DNA of 64,000 bases from Adineta vaga (Eukaryota; Animalia; Rotifera): assembly GCA_021613535.1 (NCBI GenBank), contig CP075497.1, positions 2,046,001 through 2,110,000 on the forward strand, read 5' to 3'. Within the stretch, counting starts at the first letter, position 1. The number at the start of each line of letters is the position of its first letter. Under the pieces are notes generated by a model. That model saw only the letters and a program-made list of their open reading frames with translations, searched no databases and was not told where the DNA came from. The translations under genes and the position numbers were made by a program. Positions 5,984 to 49,927 of the stretch are shown piece after piece.

Positions 5984-7977
5984 ATGGATCGAATTCAATG
6001 TCCAATTTGTTTTGAAAATTTTTCCAAAGAAAAAAAGCCGATGATAATATGTACAAATGGTCATTCAATGTGTCAAGAATGTTTGAATGATATCAAATCT
6101 TCATCAAAAGTTGAATGTTCAATGTGTCGTGAAGATTTATTACCCGTCGCAATTGTTAATCGTGATGTATTAAATTTAATCGACGCTATTTATGAAACTA
6201 TGGCTGCGATTCCTGTTATTAAAGTTGAAGAATTAATAATAGAACCCAAACCATTTGGATTTGGTGGCAGTGCTGATGTATTTCGAGCACAATGGAAACG
6301 ACAGACAGTTGTTATAAAACGTTTACGTACAGGCACAAATGATCCTAAACAATTATCACAACTGAAAGGAGAAATAAGTATGCATGTTGGATTAAGACAT
6401 CCATGTATTATATCTTTATTTGGTTATACAAGTAATGGAAATGGAAAAGAAATTGTGATGGAATATGCTGAACGTGGTTCATTAAATAATAATTGGAAGA
6501 ATGCTGATCAAAACCAATTAATCAATTGGGCATTGGATATTATCGATGGTTTACAATATTTACATAGTCGAAAAATTTCACATAGGTACAAAGATTTTCT
6601 TCAAAAAGATAATCAATATCTTGTGTTTTTTTTTCTTAGAGATCTTAAGCCAGAAAATATTCTCATTGCACAAGATAATCGTGCAAAATTATCTGATTTT
6701 GGAATGGCAAGAGTATTAGCAACAATTCAACATAATACAGCAGGAAGTGGAACACCAGTTCGTATAAATTTTCACTATTCCATTGTACTTCTCATCGATA
6801 CTTTGTATAGAAATATACAGCTCCTGAATTATTCGATGCCGATACAAAATATGGTTCCGAAGTTGATATCTATAGTTTAGCATTGATTCTTTATGAAATG
6901 TTTTCAAAACAAGTTGCATTTGAAAATCTTACTCCACATCAACTTATTGCTGCTGTTTGTATAAAAAGAAAACGACCTGATTTTGATTCAACGTTTCCAA
7001 CTAAACTTCGAGAAAAAATTGAACTTGGTTGGTCACATGAAGCAAAAGATCGTTGTAAACTCGATGATTTTCTTCACATTCTCTTAGAAATAAAAAATCC
7101 ATCATCAAATAAACAAATCTTATCGATGGGAGAAACAACTCGTGTAACAATGATTGAACAAGCTGATAATACTCAAATGAAACGATTAGATTATTCACCA
7201 ATGATCGAAATGAAATGGTCAACTCAAACCGAACAAACAAAAACATTGTTAGAAAAAATGATTGATGAAATGCGTAAATCTTCAAATTTTGCAAATATCT
7301 TTTCCGATACAATCATCAATGCTATGTTACAAGTACCAAAACATTTATTCGTCGATATGAATGTGTATAAAATTGCGACAAAAATCAATGATAATGGTCA
7401 ATGTTTAAAAATGATTTATAATCCATCACAAGCATTACGTGCAAGTCAAACACAAAATATGAGTTCAACAGAAATCACCGCTGCTCAATTATGTTTAATA
7501 CCATTGAATTCTGGTGATCGAGTTTTATTTCTGGGTGCTAAAGGTGGTTATATTCAAACAATAGCTGCACAAATTGTTGGTTTTCAAGGACAAGTATGGA
7601 TTTGTTCGCAAGATGATCAAGGTCTTAAACATGTGGGAAATGTTCTAGAAAATCATGTACCAGAGATTCTGAAACAAATTATTAAATGTATTTTAGTTAA
7701 AAATGTTCAAAATGCCAATGAAGTAAAGAAAGAATTAAAAATAATGGAAGAATATTTCAATATAATTCATATTTGTGGTGCAATTTCACAAGATTCTCTT
7801 GAAGAGTTTCAAAAACTTTTGAAAATTGAAGGACAACTATTAGCACCGATTAATATCGATGAGAAAAATCAAAAATTTACTATCTTACATAAAACTCGCA
7901 ATCAAACTACCGGTCAAGTAACATTAAATAAACGTATTCTTAATGATTGGGGTATTATCTTTGGTCCTGTTCTTTAG
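5984..7977 (+). CDS. RING finger - TKL-type protein kinase - PCMT(PIMT)-like fusion, about 628 aa; exons 5984-6585, 6640-6757, 6811-7977
   Basis: C3HC4-type RING; kinase GFGGSADV, VIK, HRDLKPEN, DFG, APE and DIYS after removing two GT-AG introns; C-terminal AMLQVPKHLF..GDRVLFLGAKGGY..GQLLAPI resembles isoaspartyl methyltransferase. Confidence 0.85.
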
Positions 7978-8160
7978 TATTTTTTATAAATATACAAATA
8001 AAAGCGATAGTGAAAGGTGTGGGTGTCTCTTTTCTGCCTTTTGACTTTTTATAATTTTCTAGTTTTGAAGTATTTATAAGTCTTTCAAATAATAACAAAA
8101 AAATACACAAATTCTTTTCACTTTCACAAATCAGATGAACAAAAAAAAATTGTAATTGTT

Positions 8161-10266
8161 TTATTTTCTCTGTAAAATTTTCTCATCAATTTTGCCCAAT
8201 GTCGTTCGATCATTTTGTACTAATTCCATAACATTTTTAATTCCACGATGAATTTCTTGTAAAATATCTTTGATTTGTTCTATTTTGTCTCTGTCAAAAC
8301 GTAATGTTTCATTCGAATGAAGAATTGTTGACCATTGAATTGGAGCTAATAATGTTGGATTCATACGTATTTTCATAATTAAATCTTTTATTCGAATATC
8401 TAAGGGTAATTGAGAAAGACTTTGTAATGAATGAAGATTTGTCCAGATTTGAATTTCTGTTGACGTTAATTTTGGTTCATGTTGACGACGACGACATTCG
8501 AATTGAATTGTTGCCTAAAGATTGATTTCAATGACGAAAGAAGAAGAAGAGAAAACAATATATACCTTAAGAATTCGATGTGAATATTCAAGTAAATTGG
8601 TTTGATAACGTTTCATTGTCAAACGGAATGCTTCACATTGATCTTTAACATTACGTAATTGTTGACGAGTATTTTCTAATTGTTGTTTTTGATCTTCATG
8701 TTCAATAAATTGAGATTTCATACGATCACGTAAAGCTAAAACAGTAAATCAGATGAAGTCTTCGCATGATTTGCATTTAAATTACCTTTGACACCGACAA
8801 GAGGTACGGGAAGAAGTAATTGTGGTTTTGGATTTTCTTTCTTCGCTTGTTCCCAAACGAATGCTGTCATACCAGGTGGTGTTGTTTCAAGATATTGTTT
8901 ATAATCTTGATCATTTAAATCAGTTCGTCCAAAAACTTGAACGATTCCAATTGAATCTAAATGTGGTTTATTTGGATTTACTGGTTGACCAATTGTTGTT
9001 GTTGCTGGTACAGGTGGTTGAAGATAATTAACAATATCTGATGCTTTATGTTTTTTCACCACTAATGTTCCAGGTTGTTTTTCATTCACAACAATTAACA
9101 TCTAAATTGATGATATTGAAAACAAAGTATGAAAAGAGAAAAAAAAACGAATTTACTTGAGTACGATCATCAGCTAATGGTGAAATTCCTTCAAGTTCAA
9201 TGACACAATTCGGATTATTATTAAAACAAAGTCGATGAAGAGATTCAATACATTTATCTTTATTTTTAACAACATCAGCTAATTTTTGATTTATTATTAA
9301 AGCAACAAGACCATCTTCATCACGAGTTCTTGGACGAACACTATACGAATATGTCTATGAAAATAGAAGAAAACAAAACGATTATTTTTTATATTCGAAT
9401 CAAAAGGAGAACTAATGAATATAATTACTTTGAATACATGATAAGGTAAATTAGCATCGACATCATAGGTACCTAAATAAAAGTTGGTTAGATTTTTATT
9501 TTCAACTAAGAATCAATGTAATTACCTTGATGACAAAATGTTTTGCCAGTTCCATAGAATACTTGAAGAATATTCCATTTGAGGAAAATTTCATCACGTT
9601 CATCATTGAATAAACGTGGTGATGTTAAAGATGTAATTAATTTTTCTTCCGGACGAACTACATTAACTGTAGGGGCGGCTGGTTGAGCAATAGTTGTTGC
9701 AGCAGCACCAAATGGTTGTGTTGCACCTAAAGAATAAGATCATATTATTCTAAATCTTATGAAATGAAAGGAAAGGAATATAAACCTCCACCAAATGGAA
9801 ATGTTGAAGCTGTCGTTGTTGTTGCTGCTGCAGCTGGTGCTCCAAATCCAAATGAACCAAAAGGAGCGGTTGCTGGTGCTGTGGTTGTTGTAGTTGGTGC
9901 ACCGAATGTAAATCCTGGTGTTGCTGTGCTTGTCGCTGTACCAAAGCCAGTAAACGTTGGTCTCGTTGCTGTTGTAGTTGATGTTGGTGTACCGAATCCA
10001 AATGCAGGTGTTGTAGTAGGTGCTGGTGCTGGAAAACTGAATGGTGAAGCAGTAGTGGTCGCTGTTCCGCCAAATAAAGGAGCAGTCGTTGCTGCTGTAG
10101 CAGTTGTTGGTGCACCAAAACTGAACGGAGTTGTTGTTGCTGTTGTGGCAGCTGCCGGTGCACCGAATGTAAATGGAGTTACAGCTGCTGTAGTTGTAGT
10201 TGTGGCTGCAGGCGCACCAAATAGACTTGGTCTGGTTGCCGGATTAGCACCGAATGAGAATGCCAT
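8161..10266 (-). CDS. NUP54: nucleoporin p54, about 7 exons
   Basis: N-terminal FG/Thr-rich repeats; DERDEIFLKWNILQVFYGTGK; PPGMTAFVWEQAKKENP..PVPLVG; C-terminal coiled coil. Confidence 0.9.
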
Positions 10267-10601
10267 CTAGAAAAACTATCATTCATTATGAATTAAAAAA
10301 GAAAATATAAATTAAACGAAATATCGAAGAAAGTTTCACACAAGAAAGTTGTAAGACTGATAGACAGAGCAAACGATTCTTGAGTAATTATTATTGAAAT
10401 GATTGGAGTTGTCGTTCATCCTGTGAAATAATAACAATAGGAGAGGTCGCTAGAAAACTGTCCTCTTTCACATAACTTATTTAAATTTCAATTCTATTGC
10501 CCATTCAAAATATAACATAGAAGAAAATATATGATTCTCTAAATAAAAACTTTATTTGAAATAAAATTTCTTTTACATTCGGAAAAAGAACAATAAAAAA
10601 T

Positions 10602-12449
10602 TCATAACCAAATTTGAATAGAATCATCAATTAATTGAATTTGATAATTTTTTTCTAATTTTTTTAATCTGAAAGAATGCTGCATTAACCATTGAGAAAG
10701 ATCATCCGTTGGAATATTTTCGGATAACTGTCCGTTCATTGAAAATACAATTAAATGTTTACAATAATCTAAAATTTCACCAAGAGTTTTTCCTTCAATA
10801 ATATCATCATTTCGATATTTAATTTTCAATGAATGTATTCGATTAAAAATTCGTGCTAATTGATAAATATGTTCACTTGTAAATTTAACATTCGTTTTTC
10901 GTCCATCGAGAAATAAATGAATGACACCGGGAAAGAAAATTTCTTTATCATCGATTTCAAATAATTTTATTGCACATTGAACATCAAGACATAGAGTACT
11001 TAGATTATCTGCTGAGAGAATTAATTGTTTGAAATGATACCAATTATCAACAAGACCAGATACTGATAAAATTTTGAGACGTTTTAATTTAACTATGAAT
11101 GGAGTGAATTCGCTATTTGATGGAACTAAAGTACAAAGGATGATTTTGCATAAAACTTGATCGAAGAATGAATAACTCGAATCTGATGTTCTATAAATGA
11201 TACTTCTCATAATCTTACCTGAACGAATGGATTCATTTTCATCAATTTGAATTGTCAAATCTTGTATTTTTCTACAATGTTGTAAGATTGCAAATGTTTC
11301 TTTGAGATTTTTCACCTGAGTTATGTATAAATATTGAATACAATTATAAACTTGATCACGTTCTTTCGCTCCGAATTTATTTGAAGAAATTGATTGTAAA
11401 TTTAAAAGAATCGATGGATATGGTACTGTATGAATTAATATATAAGTTTTCTTTTGGTCTTTATTAATTGTATAAATAATTTGAAGAGATTTCCATGATC
11501 TGAGAAATTCTTGTGGATCAAACGAATAATTAACTGATGAAGAAAAATAAACCGCATATTGAAATGATTTCAATGATAAAGTATTGCAAAGTAAATCTTT
11601 ACCATAGAGAAGACGATCATCTTCTGTTAGAAGAACTAATGAAAGATATTCAACAGTTGGAATAAGTTGAAATATGGTTAAAACACTTTCTAATTTCGAA
11701 GGAGAATTCATTGTGTCAAGTGAAAAATGTGTGAGACATTGAAATGGAATGATATCTTGTTCAATAGGTAAGAGTTCTTCAATAATAACATTAACACGAC
11801 GAATTGTTGGAAAAAGAAAAGCGAAATAAAGTAAATCATTTGATGTTGAAAGTGAAAGATTTATTTGAATTAAATTCGAATAAATAGTTGAAAGTTTTTT
11901 TGTATTAAACAGTGTCATTGAATAACAATCGGGTTCGAAAAGAATTGTTTCTATTTGAGGATTTTTTGAGATCATTTCGAGTAATTGATTGTAATCATCA
12001 ATAATATTTACAAATGAATTGACTTCAATGGATTTTCTTAAACCACGAATGACAATTCGACGAAGATATTCAAGTTTAGTCAAATGATTATTAATAAATG
12101 GAAATAAATCAACATTTTTCCAATCATCTATAGCTAAAATTTCTAAATTTGGAAAGATGTTCTTGATATTCAAAGTAAAATTTTCTAAAAATTCTTGTTG
12201 TTGTAAACGATTGATCGTTAATGAACGAATACAATGACCAATTTTAGGTAAAATATTCGAATATAAATAACGAAATTGTTGATAAGTTAATCGTCGAAGT
12301 ATAACATATTGACAATAATTAATTATAGTTCGATTTAAACGTAAATTGAGATTATAAAATGAATAAAGTACATGACCACAATGGAGATATTGATAAATTT
12401 CGAGAAGAATTTCATCAGGAAATAATTCTATTTGAAAAGAATTTTTCAT
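10602..12449 (-). CDS. F-box / RNI-like LRR protein
   Basis: IELFPDEILLEIYQYL..YSFYNLNLRLN F-box, LRR-like repeats, C-terminal IQIWL; probable in-frame intron 11218-11126. Confidence 0.75.
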   Translation of the reverse strand: MKNSFQIELFPDEILLEIYQYLHCGHVLYSFYNLNLRLNRTIINYCQYVILRRLTYQQFRYLYSNILPKIGHCIRSLTINRLQQQEFLENFTLNIKNIFPNLEILAIDDWKNVDLFPFINNHLTKLEYLRRIVIRGLRKSIEVNSFVNIIDDYNQLLEMISKNPQIETILFEPDCYSMTLFNTKKLSTIYSNLIQINLSLSTSNDLLYFAFLFPTIRRVNVIIEELLPIEQDIIPFQCLTHFSLDTMNSPSKLESVLTIFQLIPTVEYLSLVLLTEDDRLLYGKDLLCNTLSLKSFQYAVYFSSSVNYSFDPQEFLRSWKSLQIIYTINKDQKKTYILIHTVPYPSILLNLQSISSNKFGAKERDQVYNCIQYLYITQVKNLKETFAILQHCRKIQDLTIQIDENESIRSGKIMRSIIYRTSDSSYSFFDQVLCKIILCTLVPSNSEFTPFIVKLKRLKILSVSGLVDNWYHFKQLILSADNLSTLCLDVQCAIKLFEIDDKEIFFPGVIHLFLDGRKTNVKFTSEHIYQLARIFNRIHSLKIKYRNDDIIEGKTLGEILDYCKHLIVFSMNGQLSENIPTDDLSQWLMQHSFRLKKLEKNYQIQLIDDSIQIWL

Positions 12450-28447: not shown

Positions 28448-30012
28448 ATGGCAAGTAGCAAATCAACATTAGTTTCAAAAAAGCAGATAGACGCCGTTGT
28501 CTTGACATTCATAAAATCCACAATGTTCTTCTTATATGGCTGGATATAAACATCGATGACAATAACAAGGATTGTTAAAATACCATGACACAACTTCAAC
28601 GTATAGTCAACGATCTGAATATCTATACAGATTGTGAGCGATGCATTGAATTCCTTAGAACCATCAAAGATCAAGGGAGTCTTTACAGAGATCAAGCCCA
28701 TCTATGATGCTCTCGAGCATGCAGCACAACATTGTGAACAAAATGCTGTACCAATGAGTTTCGTGGCATCAGGCAAAAGGTTCGATCAACTGGATACTTC
28801 TTACCTGTGCACTCAGATCCTCAAGGAGATCTTATTGACCATCAAATTCAACGGCACACATATTCAAGATTACGTCAACTACTGTCGCGAACTTTTCGTC
28901 GGTAACGATCAACAATTGGACAATGTGAAGTTATTGGAACGCAAATATCATCAGAAAACACCTATCTGGTGGTATACTTATCTCTGTTTCTTATGCAACA
29001 TGCTCAATAGTGGAATTCGAATGATAGATGGTGACATCATCACACGGATGAGTTTCTTTATTAATGATTTACATCGATATATTGAATTCGTGCGTCACGA
29101 ACAACATATTAATCATGTTTTCACAGTTTATCGTGGACAAGGATTATCAAAAACAGATTTTGAACAACTAAAGCAAACAAAAGGTAGACTCATGCCGTTT
29201 AATAACTACTTATCCACTAGCAAGAATAAAGATGTTTCACTTCGGTTTGCAAAACAAAATATTAATAATCCCGATTTGGTGGGAATTTTATTCGTAATGA
29301 CAATAGATCCAAAACAATCAACAACAGCATTTGCATCAATTCGTGACCTTAGTGCTATCTCGGATGAAGACGAAGTGCTGTTTTCAATGCACAGCGTGTT
29401 TCGAATTCAGGATATCCAACAAATGGGTGGAAGTAAGAAACTCTTCGAAGTGAGTTTGACATTGACCAACGATAACGACAAAGACTTACATGCATTGACT
29501 GAGCGCTTACGAAAAGACAGTTTTCCTCATTTGGGAGGATGGTACAGATTGGGTTTGGTATGGTTAAATTGAGTCAAAATAAGAAGGCTGAAGAGATTTA
29601 TGAAATACTACTTGATCAAAGACAATCAAGGAGAATATGAAGAGGCAATTAGATTCTATGAAAAATCACTTGCCATCTATGAGAAAACTCTTTCTCCTCA
29701 AGATCCTAAGTTGGCTATGTCTTACTGCAGCATTGGTTCTGTGTATTATAACACGAGCAACTACACAAAAGTACTTTCATATTATGAGAAAGACTTTGCA
29801 ATTCGGCAACAATCACTTCCTGCAAATCATCCTGATTTGGCTATATCTTACAACAATATCGGTTTGGTGTATGAAAACATGAAGAAATAATCAAAAGCCT
29901 GTTCGTTTCATGAGCGTGCTGTACAAATTACACAACAATCATTGTCTCTGAATCATCCTCATCGCCAAATATATGAAAGAAACTTATTGAACGCATGAAA
30001 AAGAAATTATAA
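28448..30012 (+). pseudogene. NAD:arginine ADP-ribosyltransferase - TPR family pseudogene
   Basis: NVLLIWLD N-terminus, R-S-E motifs (VYRGQ, STS, EDEVLF), kinesin-light-chain-like TPRs (HPDLAISYNNIG); in-frame stops near 28575 and 29888 and frameshifts near 28670 and 29560. Confidence 0.8.
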
Positions 30013-31159: not shown

Positions 31160-33288
31160 TTATTCAATGTCATCTAATGGATTCGTATTCAATTGAATTG
31201 GATTTGAAATAATAAAATTTGAAGATTCACTTGTGTAAAGATAAGGTAGCGTTAGTTTTGTTATTGTATCAAATTTCATGACAATATCCATTGATTTCTC
31301 TTTATTGAAATGTGTTAATTGTTCATAAGAATCTTCATTGAACATCGATCGCTTTCGGCGATGAAAGAGATTGAATATAACTATTCGTTGTTTACATGTT
31401 GCGATTAGATAAATACATATCAAGATAAAGCTCATTGCTGGCAATGTTAATACTAATGAAATAAATGATGAAGATTTATGTGAATAAATCGAATTTTGAT
31501 AACATTTTCCAGGTGAAATCGAAAGATTTTGATATTTTTCTATTTGATTACAACGAGAAATTTGTTTCTGGAATAAACATTTTCTTTCTTCATGTTCAAT
31601 TTCGTCAGGAGATAGGTGAAAATAACATAAGGGTGTTAAATCTTTTAACATTAATGGATTTAATATTCGATGAAGATGACGATATAAATAAAATATTGAA
31701 CATGAACATGATGTTTCTGGGATAAGTTTGACTGGAATATGTGATGGAATATCATGTATTCGACACAAATCTTCGTCGGTTAACATTCGATCGACAATTT
31801 CTAAACTTGTTAAGTTTAGATATCGTAGATAAAAATCGGATGAATTCACGATTTGAAATAAGAATTGACTATCATGATCTTTTGAAAAATAAAGAAAATC
31901 GATTGAATAGATTAGATGAATCAAATTACCTCTATGGACATTAACAAAAGCATTCGAATCCGTGTGTAGAATTCCAGTCGAATGAAAATAACCGATTCGC
32001 ATCATACTTGATCGTTGAATATCAAGATTCTCAATTGAGTTCGATTGAAAAATTAAATTTCTTCCATATTTTATCCAAATATCAATCAACGATCGTTCCC
32101 GTTGAGAGATATTTCTCATTGAATGATGCGAAAACTCCACATGCATGGAGTTTCGTAAAATAATCGATAATTTTGATTGAGTATGTTGACTAATATTTGA
32201 AAAGGTCGATGAATTCAAATAAATATTCTTTCCGTAATCAACTTCTAATTGAAATGAAGAATTCAGATCTTGTTTTATTGAAGTAAATGTTTCAGACGGA
32301 AAACAGAGATCATTTGTCATGTTGTACAGAGAAAATATTATCGAAGATTGGACTGAAATGAAAAAGAATCAATAGAAAAGCAGGAAATATGTTTGAAATT
32401 TACATTGGGTGATGAATGAGAATAAGAAATGATCAATGATTATATTTTGAAAGTTTGCGAAGATGAGATGAAAATGTGATTGATTGAATTGATGAAAATT
32501 TCGAAATGATTCAGAACCAATTGATGCCTGATGAAAATGATCGAAATGAATTTCGAATTGACTCAATTCTCTTTGGATTAGATGATTAAAACTTTGTTCT
32601 TTCAATGAAACATCAATCAAATTTGAGAAATACAATTCCATTTTTGAATAAGATGGAAGTGTCAACGTTCCTAATAGAAGAAAGGATTATCGAATCTTTC
32701 TATTTTGTTTTTGAATTTACCTGAATTAGATTGAAACTCAATGGTATGCTTGATAGAAAGTATAGAACATCGAAAAATACTTTTGAAACCATGTCTGATT
32801 CCATGAAATGCATATGGTTCGATTGTTAATAAAGATGATGTAACATTAACTATTTCGAGATGAAATTTCGATTTTGATTCAAGTTTGATTTGATCGAAAA
32901 GTTTTGAAGGAATACTTGATGATGAATATTCTGCTATTTGAATGACCAATGTGTGATCTTTCTTCAAAAGAATTTTTGAAAAAGTTTTAGATGAAATAGA
33001 ATCTATTTGAGCGAATTGTATTGTAAACGATTGATTACTTTCATAATCGAATAAATCATAATAACGAAAAGATTCTGCTGGTAAAATATTGACATCTTTA
33101 TTGAAGAGTATCGTTTTATAACGATAACACGTATAACAACGTTTTGGTAATGACGAACATTGAATTGAACTTTGTTTTAAATCACAAATACATCGATGAT
33201 CTTGAAGATCTTTATCATTTGAACAATAAGCATTAGTCATTGAAATACAATTGAAAGCAAAACCACAAGTTAACAATAAGAACAACAT
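31160..33288 (-). CDS. single-pass membrane protein with degenerate LRR ectodomain, about 4 exons
   Basis: signal peptide MLFLLLTCGFAF, Cys cap (CICD), repeats of the I...SF/AF..I type, CSCSIFYLY cap, hydrophobic TM segment followed by basic residues. Confidence 0.7.
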
Positions 33289-33833
33289 ACTTATAGGCGT
33301 AGATGTTCGTTTGTTCGATCGAACAGCTCGAGTGTTGAATACATATGTCTGTATATGAATAGACGCTCGTTTTTCTTTTCTACTAAACATTTTCATCATG
33401 AAACAAAGAAAGAGAAGAGAAGAAAAAAACATTCAACCAATTTATCTTCCTGTTCATTGCATCTCAGTTGATGACATGTACCAGTTTGAAAGTAAAGGCA
33501 ACAGATGAATTTACTCTTACTATTCTTGCATCGAAGTATCGATTTAAAATTAGAAGTTGCTTTTTTATAGTATCAATGAATGCTCTCTTATTTTGTCTGA
33601 TAGTATCACGTCGAGTATTCTTTATATATTGGTCCGGAATGGATTAGGATTTTGTTTTATCAATGATCTTGATATCATTTTGATCAATCGAAGGTTCATA
33701 ATTTTAGAAAATTGATCTTCATTTAACAGAATATCGAAATATTTTCAAGAACATTAAATAAAGAACTCTATGATCAATGAAAATCGTATTTTATTGTTGA
33801 TTTTTTTACGGATTAATACTAAAAATAAGGAAT

Positions 33834-47935: not shown

Positions 47936-49509
47936 TTAAAAGAATAACCAATAAATAATAAATGTTAAAATCAAACAAAAAATAAGTGTTAACAAAAAAC
48001 TTGAAGTTAAATTGCCATTTTGAGGAGGAGTGACTAATAAGTTTTTCACATGTTCATCTAATTTTTTAGCAAACGAAGTAAATGAAAAGTTGTTCTTCAC
48101 ACGTTCTTCACCATGTTTACCCATTTGTTTCGATAAATTCTCATTCTCAACAAATTCTTTCATTCGTTTAGCAAATGTTTCCACGAAAGGTTCTCTACAT
48201 AAATAACCGGTTTGACCATCTACAACTGTTTCCAATGGGCCACCGGTCGCGGTCGCTATAACTGGTCGACCAGCTTGCATTGCTTCAAGTGGAACAATAC
48301 CGAAATGTTCATTAAGTGGAGTATATAGAATACAATGAGCTTTCGAAAGATATTCACGTTTTTCTTTATCAGAAAATGATCGAACAAATGTTATGGATGA
48401 TGAAGAAAGATTTAAATCTTTTGCTAATTCTTGAAGTTCATTGTAATATTCGACATTTTCACTTAAACGTTCATCATAACCGCCGATGATATATAAATGA
48501 ATCGGTTTCGAGTTTGATGAAAGTAATGTTTGAAGATGCGAGAAGGCATGAATGGCAAGACCTAAATCTTTTTTTCGTTCAAAACGATTGATTGAAAGAA
48601 AATTTATTGATTTTTCACTGTCATTTGATAATAATGGAATTATTTGATCAGGTATCGTTGGATAAAGTATATGTACGGGAATGTCTGATCGAATATGTTC
48701 TCGAAATACGGATTCAGTATAACGACTATTTACTAATATACGATCAGCAAGACATGTTGTATAGATCTAAATAGAAAAAGAAACATTTATATGGCGAATT
48801 CATTTGAATTCGATATCTTATTAGTATTTCTAATGGACTCTATCTGACCCTTGAGCATTTCTGACAATTATTGATTAAATTAAAGAGAAAAGAACTTCAA
48901 GAGACAGAAAACTAAATGGATTATTTCTCATACACGCGATTCATCAGTCTAATCGAATTAGCAAAACTATTTCGAAGAGAAAGATAGAATTACATAGTGA
49001 TCAAAATAAGCGTGTGAAATAATCACTAAATATTCTTTCAAAATCAATAAGGACATGCTTACTTCAAATGTATCTATCGGCCAACGATAGAATTTCTTCG
49101 CTAATGATTCTCGTTTTGTTAATAAATGATCAGGATAATGACAATAGAATAAAACTGGTCGTTGACTTCGTTTTAAAACTGGTATACACGCACTTATTTG
49201 ATCACATAGAAACAGATCATATTGTTTGTCTTTTTTCATATAAACAACATAAAAAGCAAGAAGAATAAATCGTAGATAAGCACATAAAGCATTGAATCTT
49301 CCAAAGATATTTCTCGGAAACCATGAACATGCAACAAAAACATTCAATTGATCATTTCGAGTTTCATCAAAACATCTTCGTTTATCATGAAAATTTGTAT
49401 AAAGATCTACATCATATCCTGATGTTTTCAATGCTAATCCTATATCAACAATTAATCGTTCCGCTCCGCCAATACCTAAATCTGGATGAAGAATCGCAAT
49501 ACGTGGCAT
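47936..49509 (-). CDS. ALG2: alpha-1,3/1,6-mannosyltransferase ALG2, 425 aa; exons 49509-49063, 48766-47936
   Basis: HPDLGIGGAERL, FYCHYPD, SINRFERKK, GGYDERLSENVEY, EHFGIVPLEAM, GGPLETV; hydrophobic C-terminal tail. Confidence 0.93.
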
Positions 49510-49927
49510 ATCTAAAATGTGATTATTACGGATTGTTTTTTTATTCATTAATGAAATTGATTAGAAAAACCTTCTGTTTTTTTTTCAATTTGCTGAGAAA
49601 TACTTGAGATAAATGAAAAAGAGATATAGATAATAGTATAATACTGATTGATAAGGAGAAAAGAGAAGTATTTTTCGAAAGGTAGGAAAGTGATAGGCTG
49701 TTGTATGTGAAAAAAAACTGTACAAATAAATAAAATCACGTTGCGGCTAAACAAAACAACAGAAAATTGGTAGAAAAATACACCAAAAAGAGATATACAA
49801 TAGAAGGAAAGATGCAAAAAAAAACAAACAAACAAAAACATTTTATCTAAAGTATTTCATTAGGGAAAACAACAAAAAATAAGATCTGCCTAAATAAATG
49901 CATTGTAAGAATAGAATTGAAATAAGA

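Follow-up and report, generated by a model that had tools for sequence, protein, structure and literature searches.

A RING–kinase–PIMT-like fusion gene of the bdelloid rotifer Adineta vaga and an apparently undescribed family of pseudo-PIMT domains

The gene described here lies in a 64,000-nucleotide stretch of the Adineta vaga genome (GCA_021613535.1, contig CP075497.1, positions 2,046,001 to 2,110,000 of the forward strand; hereafter the window), where it is flanked on one side by a BTB-Kelch gene and on the other by an FG-nucleoporin gene. The coding sequence starts with an ATG at position 5984 and, once its three exons are joined, comprises 1,887 nt with no internal stops, encoding a 628-residue protein. 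This protein consists of a RING finger, a kinase and a C-terminal domain resembling the isoaspartyl methyltransferases (PIMT, also PCMT), hereafter the PIMT-like or pseudo-PIMT domain. The features of the gene, in window coordinates, are as follows.

5984..6585 (+): exon 1, encoding the RING finger and the kinase N-lobe as far as HR in the HRD motif; its junction is visible in contigs
5999..6130 (+): C3HC4 RING finger, residues 6–49, with 8/8 Zn ligands (Pfam zf-RING_UBOX, E 1.5e-7)
6236..7095 (+): TKL-like Ser/Thr kinase domain, residues about 85–335, lying across both introns, with Pfam Pkinase matched in all three exons
6586..6639 (+): intron 1, 54 nt, GT–AG
6640..6757 (+): exon 2, encoding the DLKPEN catalytic loop, DFG and the activation segment (Pfam Pkinase, E 1.5e-8)
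6758..6810 (+): intron 2, 53 nt, GT–AG
6811..7977 (+): exon 3, a single 388-codon frame encoding the kinase C-lobe, a linker, the PIMT-like domain and the stop
7216..7974 (+): PIMT-like domain, residues about 376–628, at the end of the protein (Pfam PCMT; family profile against solved PIMTs, E 4e-16)
7453..7473 (+): pre-motif I, QNMSSTE, with Ser kept, Thr replaced by Asn and Tyr/His by Glu
7534..7551 (+): altered motif I, GAKGGY, with the family lysine Lys484 (Lys in 69 of 72 family members)
7606..7608 (+): Ser506, replacing the ribose-binding Glu of post-I (Ser/Thr in 72/72 family domains, Glu in 8/8 canonical PIMTs)

Splicing was read from contig joints in five transcript-like runs, that is, runs judged to be RNA by a program's guess or left unlabelled. 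Intron 1 is spliced out in contigs of three of these runs (X12, X14 and X11) and intron 2 in four (X12, X13, X14 and X11); X17 covers neither. X11 also skips introns of the adjoining nucleoporin gene, and both introns of the fusion gene are retained in the DNA-type runs X1 and X5. One X14 contig extends unbroken from 6811 to 8032, through the kinase C-lobe, the entire PIMT-like domain and the stop, and another transcript-like contig covers 5879–7205 in spliced form. An earlier note, made from the sequence alone, had proposed two canonical introns and a fusion that is no artefact of prediction, and on both points the contigs agree with it; nor do the transcript-like contigs stop short of the C-terminal domain, which would have spoken against it. 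A prediction artefact, a misassembly or contamination has next to nothing to recommend it as an explanation: spliced transcript-like contigs exist, full-length orthologues occur in several bdelloid assemblies, and a DNA contig of X5 (7257–10380) joins exon 3 to the neighbouring nucleoporin gene. In favour of such an error are a 1-nt deletion at window position 6654, within exon 2, in one X1 DNA contig (depth 7), which is either a null allele or an assembly error, and the absence of the gene from most animals in the searches run. A real fusion transcribed as one unit is thus supported. The 20 allelic differences listed from RNA-type contigs, 10 synonymous and 10 non-synonymous, are too few to use.

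The FG-nucleoporin gene (8009–10270, −) converges on the fusion gene, and transcript contigs of the two genes overlap near 7964–8035. Elsewhere the window contains a phytochelatin synthase domain (849–1508, −; E 7e-27), an open reading frame matching an ADP-ribosyltransferase domain (28619–29572, +; E 4e-7) and a GT4 glycosyltransferase in long exons, possibly a foreign gene (47936–49560, −). Three long single-exon reading frames have no Pfam match (10602–12449, 31160–32368 and 32671–33432, all −; 615, 402 and 253 residues), the first of which has an F-box/LRR look by eye.

The motifs of the two N-terminal domains are intact, as previously noted. In the RING finger, all eight Zn ligands (C6, C9, C23, H27, C30, C33, C45 and C48) and the RING spacing are kept, and the Pfam match exceeds its cut-off, as for a putative E3 ubiquitin ligase. 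The kinase has all six catalytic residues (K112, E130, D202, K204, N207 and D220) and matches the HRDxKxxN, DFG and APE motifs. For the A. steineri orthologue, AlphaFold2 with a 27-sequence alignment gave a model with three folded domains (mean pLDDT 83.9, pTM 0.70). Fold searches with this model place the kinase nearest to CRAF, HCK, BTK and CTR1; the label TKL-like follows from the closest folds (RAF, Src and CTR1) and not from a group tree. Both searches with the full-length model gave kinases alone among the matches listed.

The C-terminal domain matches the Pfam PCMT model (PF01135) at E 8.4e-10, with 39.2 bits against a cut-off of 20.3, over model positions 5–193 of 210, in line with the PCMT-like fold proposed earlier. 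A profile built from the family matches solved PIMTs over nearly their full length (best E 4e-16), with PCMTD1 at E 1.4e-6. The fold was assigned from these sequence profiles and from the strand–helix pattern in the AlphaFold2 model; single-sequence AlphaFold of exon 3 gave a pLDDT of 36, and a prediction of the domain as a homodimer, run without an alignment, scored 0.00, which is no evidence either way. An atlas search with the domain returned ordinary PCMT clusters. In Adineta and Rotaria the domain is conserved to roughly the same degree as the RING finger (78–80%).

The earlier note had also remarked on an altered SAM motif. The sequence VLFLGAKGGY occupies residues 478–487, with F480 in place of Glu and K484 in place of Gly, and the alteration proves to be common to the whole family. 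Substitutions were counted in 72 family domains less than 80% identical to each other, out of 123 chosen by profile score and coverage, and compared with a reference set of E. coli Pcm and seven other canonical PIMTs; the motif counts are partly circular, as the selecting profile contains the motif, but the tree nevertheless recovers the clade (support 96/99). In E. coli numbering, E81 of motif I is F, L, V or M in 72/72 domains and an acid in none, G85 is Lys in 69/72, and E104 of post-I is Ser or Thr in 72/72. In the DG of motif II, where the alignment is looser, D131 is kept in 11/72 and G132 in 0/72. E81, E104 and D131 are the SAM contacts established for class I methyltransferases. Further changes are T148 to Cys (62/72), A149 to Gly (66/72), and, in pre-I, T57 to Asn (54/72) and Y62 to Glu (62/72). 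Retained are G83, G87 and Y88 (invariant), S59 of pre-I (67/72) and F199 of post-III (65/72); conserved within the family are a His (His418 in the rotifer protein; 69/72) and the residues Glu461, Lys484 and Cys562 of the rotifer protein. The pattern persists at a 60% identity filter (37 rows). By alignment with canonical PIMTs, the SAM side of the pocket has been rebuilt and the substrate side partly kept.

Because the motif-I Glu and Gly and the post-I Glu are replaced family-wide, SAM-dependent methylation has probably been lost, and the new invariant residues suggest selection for a new function and not decay. For human PCMTD1, PMC12590147 assigns AdoMet binding to motif I and post-I and the substrate site to pre-I and post-III, and reports that the protein needs AdoMet, bound by an intact motif I and the post-I Glu, in order to bind isoAsp. 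The lysine by itself is no proof of lost SAM binding, since four prokaryotic PIMT-like relatives combine the motif-I Lys with a retained post-I acid (L005:4093-6240, L006:256-2562, L004:726-1763 and L013:28-747); the lysine either came before the post-I change or arose separately. At L005 the Lys-type gene overlaps a canonical pcm gene. Lys-type proteins of Flavobacteriales and Planctomycetota (715 and 768 residues) have a common long C-terminal region with no Pfam match.

The cassette is neither restricted to bdelloids nor recent. Of 750 candidates, 41 proteins were matched by the PIMT-like region, including Adineta and Rotaria orthologues (67–78% identity in this region) and a protein of the fly Bradysia coprophila (58%). 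When 1.84 billion representatives were searched exhaustively, there were 55 matches; 40 proteins from the matches were scanned in Pfam. Kinase and PIMT-like domains occur together in Anaeramoeba flamelloides and A. ignava (Metamonada), in one EukProt transcript and in Eukaryota sp. TZLM1-RC, GEM-RC1 and TZLM3-RCL, anaerobic protists unclassified in NCBI; the label TZLM1-RC reportedly occurs in a paper on the metamonad Skoliomonas. All long matches of the family profile (29/29) contain both kinase and PCMT, RING ligands are present in most full-length proteins of this kind, and the A. flamelloides copies are pseudokinases. For 20 such proteins, the tree of the kinase and that of the PIMT-like domain have their supported groups in common, indicating that the cassette has been inherited as a unit and predates bdelloids. 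An invention specific to bdelloids is contradicted by the copies in Anaeramoeba, the three unclassified protists and Bradysia, and a recent chimera finds no support in the congruent trees, which cover two of the three domains for which separate phylogenies had been proposed as a check.

In a 73-row tree, the family forms a clade apart from canonical PIMTs (96/99), and eukaryotic forms are a subclade (99/97) inside archaeal-type sequences, a nesting found in both trees. Two alternatives survive approximately unbiased (AU) tests on 49 of the 73 rows, the other 24 having been dropped as long-branch or redundant: archaeal-type sequences as a monophyletic group (p 0.19), and Anaeramoeba forming a clade together with the three unclassified protists (p 0.07). 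Bradysia and five further proteins group with bdelloids (98/100 in the 73-row tree), as their sister in one tree and among them in the other. This grouping, at 59–66% identity, is a candidate for transfer from a eukaryote to an animal or between animals, and the foreign origin allowed by the earlier note appears likely for bdelloids. The Bradysia record, XP_037033280, lies on a 5.87-Mb contig and may still be a contaminant. The proteins P0036 and P0039 belong to the Bradysia group; the fragment P0039 starts just before KYTAPE with intron-like residues, suggesting that its intron 2 has the same position as in bdelloids.

A eukaryote-like metagenomic clade adds 38 partly redundant loci. RING and motif lie in one intronless frame amid non-coding DNA at 23 of the 38, the kinase HxD–K pattern is missing in 5 of these 23, and three loci have split copies; such intronless, multi-copy genes lie on L017–L050, and one locus, L024, has two copies beside a reverse-transcriptase fragment. 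No phage matched the family, and no viral contig matched with the archaeal-type alignment; a viral contig match at E 1e-4, within a DNA polymerase gene, was weak and was rejected as chance.

The partners of the PIMT-like domain vary, and its position is nearly fixed: 122 of 123 proteins have it at their C-terminus. In 3 of the 40 scanned proteins it follows a TIR domain, each with Glu at the catalytic position; the tree suggests an archaeal origin for these proteins. In a Lokiarchaeon it is preceded by a bpMoxR AAA ATPase, and Promethearchaeota have a helical N-terminus in that place; individual proteins have UBA- or ubiquitin-like domains there (P0078, and P0058 below the Pfam cut-off). Among 400 Promethearchaeota genomes, many of them incomplete and with up to six candidates scored in each, two carry the domain, and both also keep canonical PIMTs. 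One of these (G002) has it on a MoxR ATPase and on a helical protein, encoded on different contigs. An atlas search with the helical N-terminus produced leads at 0.80 or below. PADLOC matched the TIR and kinase parts to generic models and has no model for the PIMT-like domain, to which mad2 alone was assigned, weakly, in 2 of 10 proteins (E about 1e-5).

We tentatively favour, at somewhat below even chance, the reading that the pseudo-PIMT is a methylation-dead sensor gating N-terminal effectors in defence-type signalling. It is favoured because of the fixed C-terminal position, the swappable effectors, the rarity of the family, its local expansion and its pseudokinase offshoots. Immunity genes typically occur patchily, expand and exchange their effector domains. 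The C-terminal domain, probably no longer methylating, would act as a ligand sensor, and the ligand would sit in the remodelled pocket with its conserved new Lys, Glu, Asn, Ser/Thr and Cys. Binding could lead to clustering and trans-phosphorylation of the kinase, by analogy with RIPK and IRAK, and a RING finger switched on in this way could start ubiquitin signalling, as in TRAF-type pathways. The module itself may have entered bdelloids laterally from another eukaryote. Our first guess at the ligand is isoAsp or another peptide carboxylate, Lys484 taking the place of the SAM sulfonium. The second is a phosphorylated adenine nucleotide, since Ser/Thr together with Lys is reminiscent of the NADP-type substitution in Rossmann folds, and the third is an invader protein.

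With TIR and MoxR AAA among the partners, defence signalling seems a better fit than housekeeping repair, but UBA- and ubiquitin-like partners suit protein quality control just as well. The bdelloid gene lies among ordinary host genes; it is well conserved and gives no hint of the fast turnover of an arms race. On the three archaeal contigs, which are too short to reveal an operon, the neighbours are mostly unrelated housekeeping genes, one contig also encoding a separate TIR protein. A rival along the lines of the earlier note is a one-chain quality-control ligase, which would bind isoAsp-damaged proteins without SAM, ubiquitinate them and signal, in convergence with CRL5–PCMTD1 and of use in desiccation. 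The retained pre-I Ser and post-III Phe lie in what PMC12590147 describes as substrate-site regions of PCMT1 and PCMTD1, the RING, UBA and ubiquitin-like partners fit, and the domain stops right after its last strand, which may leave the pocket open, like that of PCMTD1. We nevertheless consider such a ligase unlikely. According to the same source, PCMTD1 needs AdoMet for isoAsp binding and keeps motif I and the post-I Glu, both of which the pseudo-PIMT family has lost, and within pre-I the Thr and the next aromatic residue or His have mostly become Asn and Glu. Desiccation-induced PIMT paralogues of Polypedilum, an expansion confirmed in PMC4175575, lend the idea some appeal, but nothing ties them to this family. 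Neither the anaerobic protists that carry the cassette nor the TIR and MoxR partners suit a desiccation role, which is unsupported; a desiccation-specific invention likewise finds no support.

An improbable alternative is that the domain still works as an enzyme, either methylating by way of an unusual SAM site or catalysing a new reaction through His418, Glu461, Lys484 and Cys562. The whole fold is retained, with invariant Gly83, Gly87 and Tyr88, and these four residues are each kept in at least 62 of the 72 domains (His 69, Glu 62, Lys 69, Cys 62). However, the domain has lost the two acidic SAM contacts along with the DG adenine motif, canonical PIMTs are kept in the host genomes checked, and TIR and kinase partners already supply catalytic outputs. 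Less probable still is a homotypic adaptor that binds no small molecule and, in the manner of death or effector-associated domains, connects effectors with an NTPase core. The near-invariable terminal position and the two carriers in G002 would suit an adaptor; yet the invariant residues fall in the columns of the PIMT cofactor and substrate sites, the two G002 genes lie on different contigs, and in bdelloids a second carrier protein was not found among the matches. A fuller history built on the reading as a methylation-dead sensor strikes us as doubtful: a PIMT that ceased to use SAM would have become a sensor serving Asgard TIR and MoxR proteins, been fused once to a RING–kinase in early eukaryotes and entered animals laterally more than once (bdelloids, the sciarid fly and possibly a further host), yielding a one-chain receptor for immunity or damage and perhaps the first SAM-independent reader of isoAsp.

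Both the pseudo-PIMT family and the three-domain cassette are real and apparently undescribed. Databases list the proteins as 'unnamed protein', 'ULK3-like' or under generic kinase or PIMT labels, and no description of the architecture or the family was found in the open-access literature searched; subscription papers and other supplements could hold one. The earlier note did not recognise the architecture either; the cassette is present patchily in protists, a fly and a metagenomic clade. If the domain is a sensor, it would represent a new ligand-reading module found in Asgard archaea as well as in eukaryotes, and the isoAsp repair fold would have been coupled to ubiquitination twice, independently of its use in PCMTD1. 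Signalling on age-damaged proteins and the archaeal roots of eukaryotic immune modules would become questions testable with one small soluble domain.

Compared with PIMT/PCMT1 (PF01135; E. coli Pcm, PDB 3LBF and 4O29), the pseudo-PIMT has the same fold and ancestry and keeps VPRxxF, the pre-I Ser and the GY, whereas the motif-I Glu and middle Gly, the post-I Glu and the DG motif are replaced and the family forms its own clade; PIMT is a stand-alone enzyme and the pseudo-PIMT a C-terminal module of multidomain proteins. Fusions of RING and kinase, such as plant KEG and MEKK1, and RIPK/IRAK–TRAF signalling are well known, and like them the rotifer protein brings together an E3 RING and a TKL-like kinase in one chain or complex, a comparison made at the level of the generic kinase fold. 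To our knowledge, no known RING–kinase fusion carries a PIMT-like domain.

The arrangement of an N-terminal effector and a small C-terminal domain, the TIR and bpMoxR partners and the patchiness also recall TIR-SAVED, TIR-STING and MoxR–vWA ternary conflict systems (PMC7159879); unlike those defence proteins, the pseudo-PIMT family would use a PIMT fold as the sensor, for which PADLOC has no model. No PCMT or PIMT term occurs in the available text and two supplements of PMC7159879 or in 12 of the 13 supplements of PMC8195603. The closest functional parallel noted earlier, human PCMTD1 in CRL5, is a fair one, as both couple a PIMT fold to RING-type ubiquitination: according to PMC12590147, PCMTD1 is a methylation-dead PIMT fold tied to this machinery, and like the rotifer domain it has no C-terminal helix closing the pocket. 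PCMTD1 still binds AdoMet and uses a SOCS box to recruit a cullin, whereas the rotifer protein has its RING and kinase in cis and has lost the SAM residues; a Pfam scan of the 628-residue protein found no SOCS/BC-box after the PIMT-like domain, with which the protein ends. As PCMTD1 is a much weaker match to the family profile than prokaryotic PIMTs are, the resemblance looks convergent.
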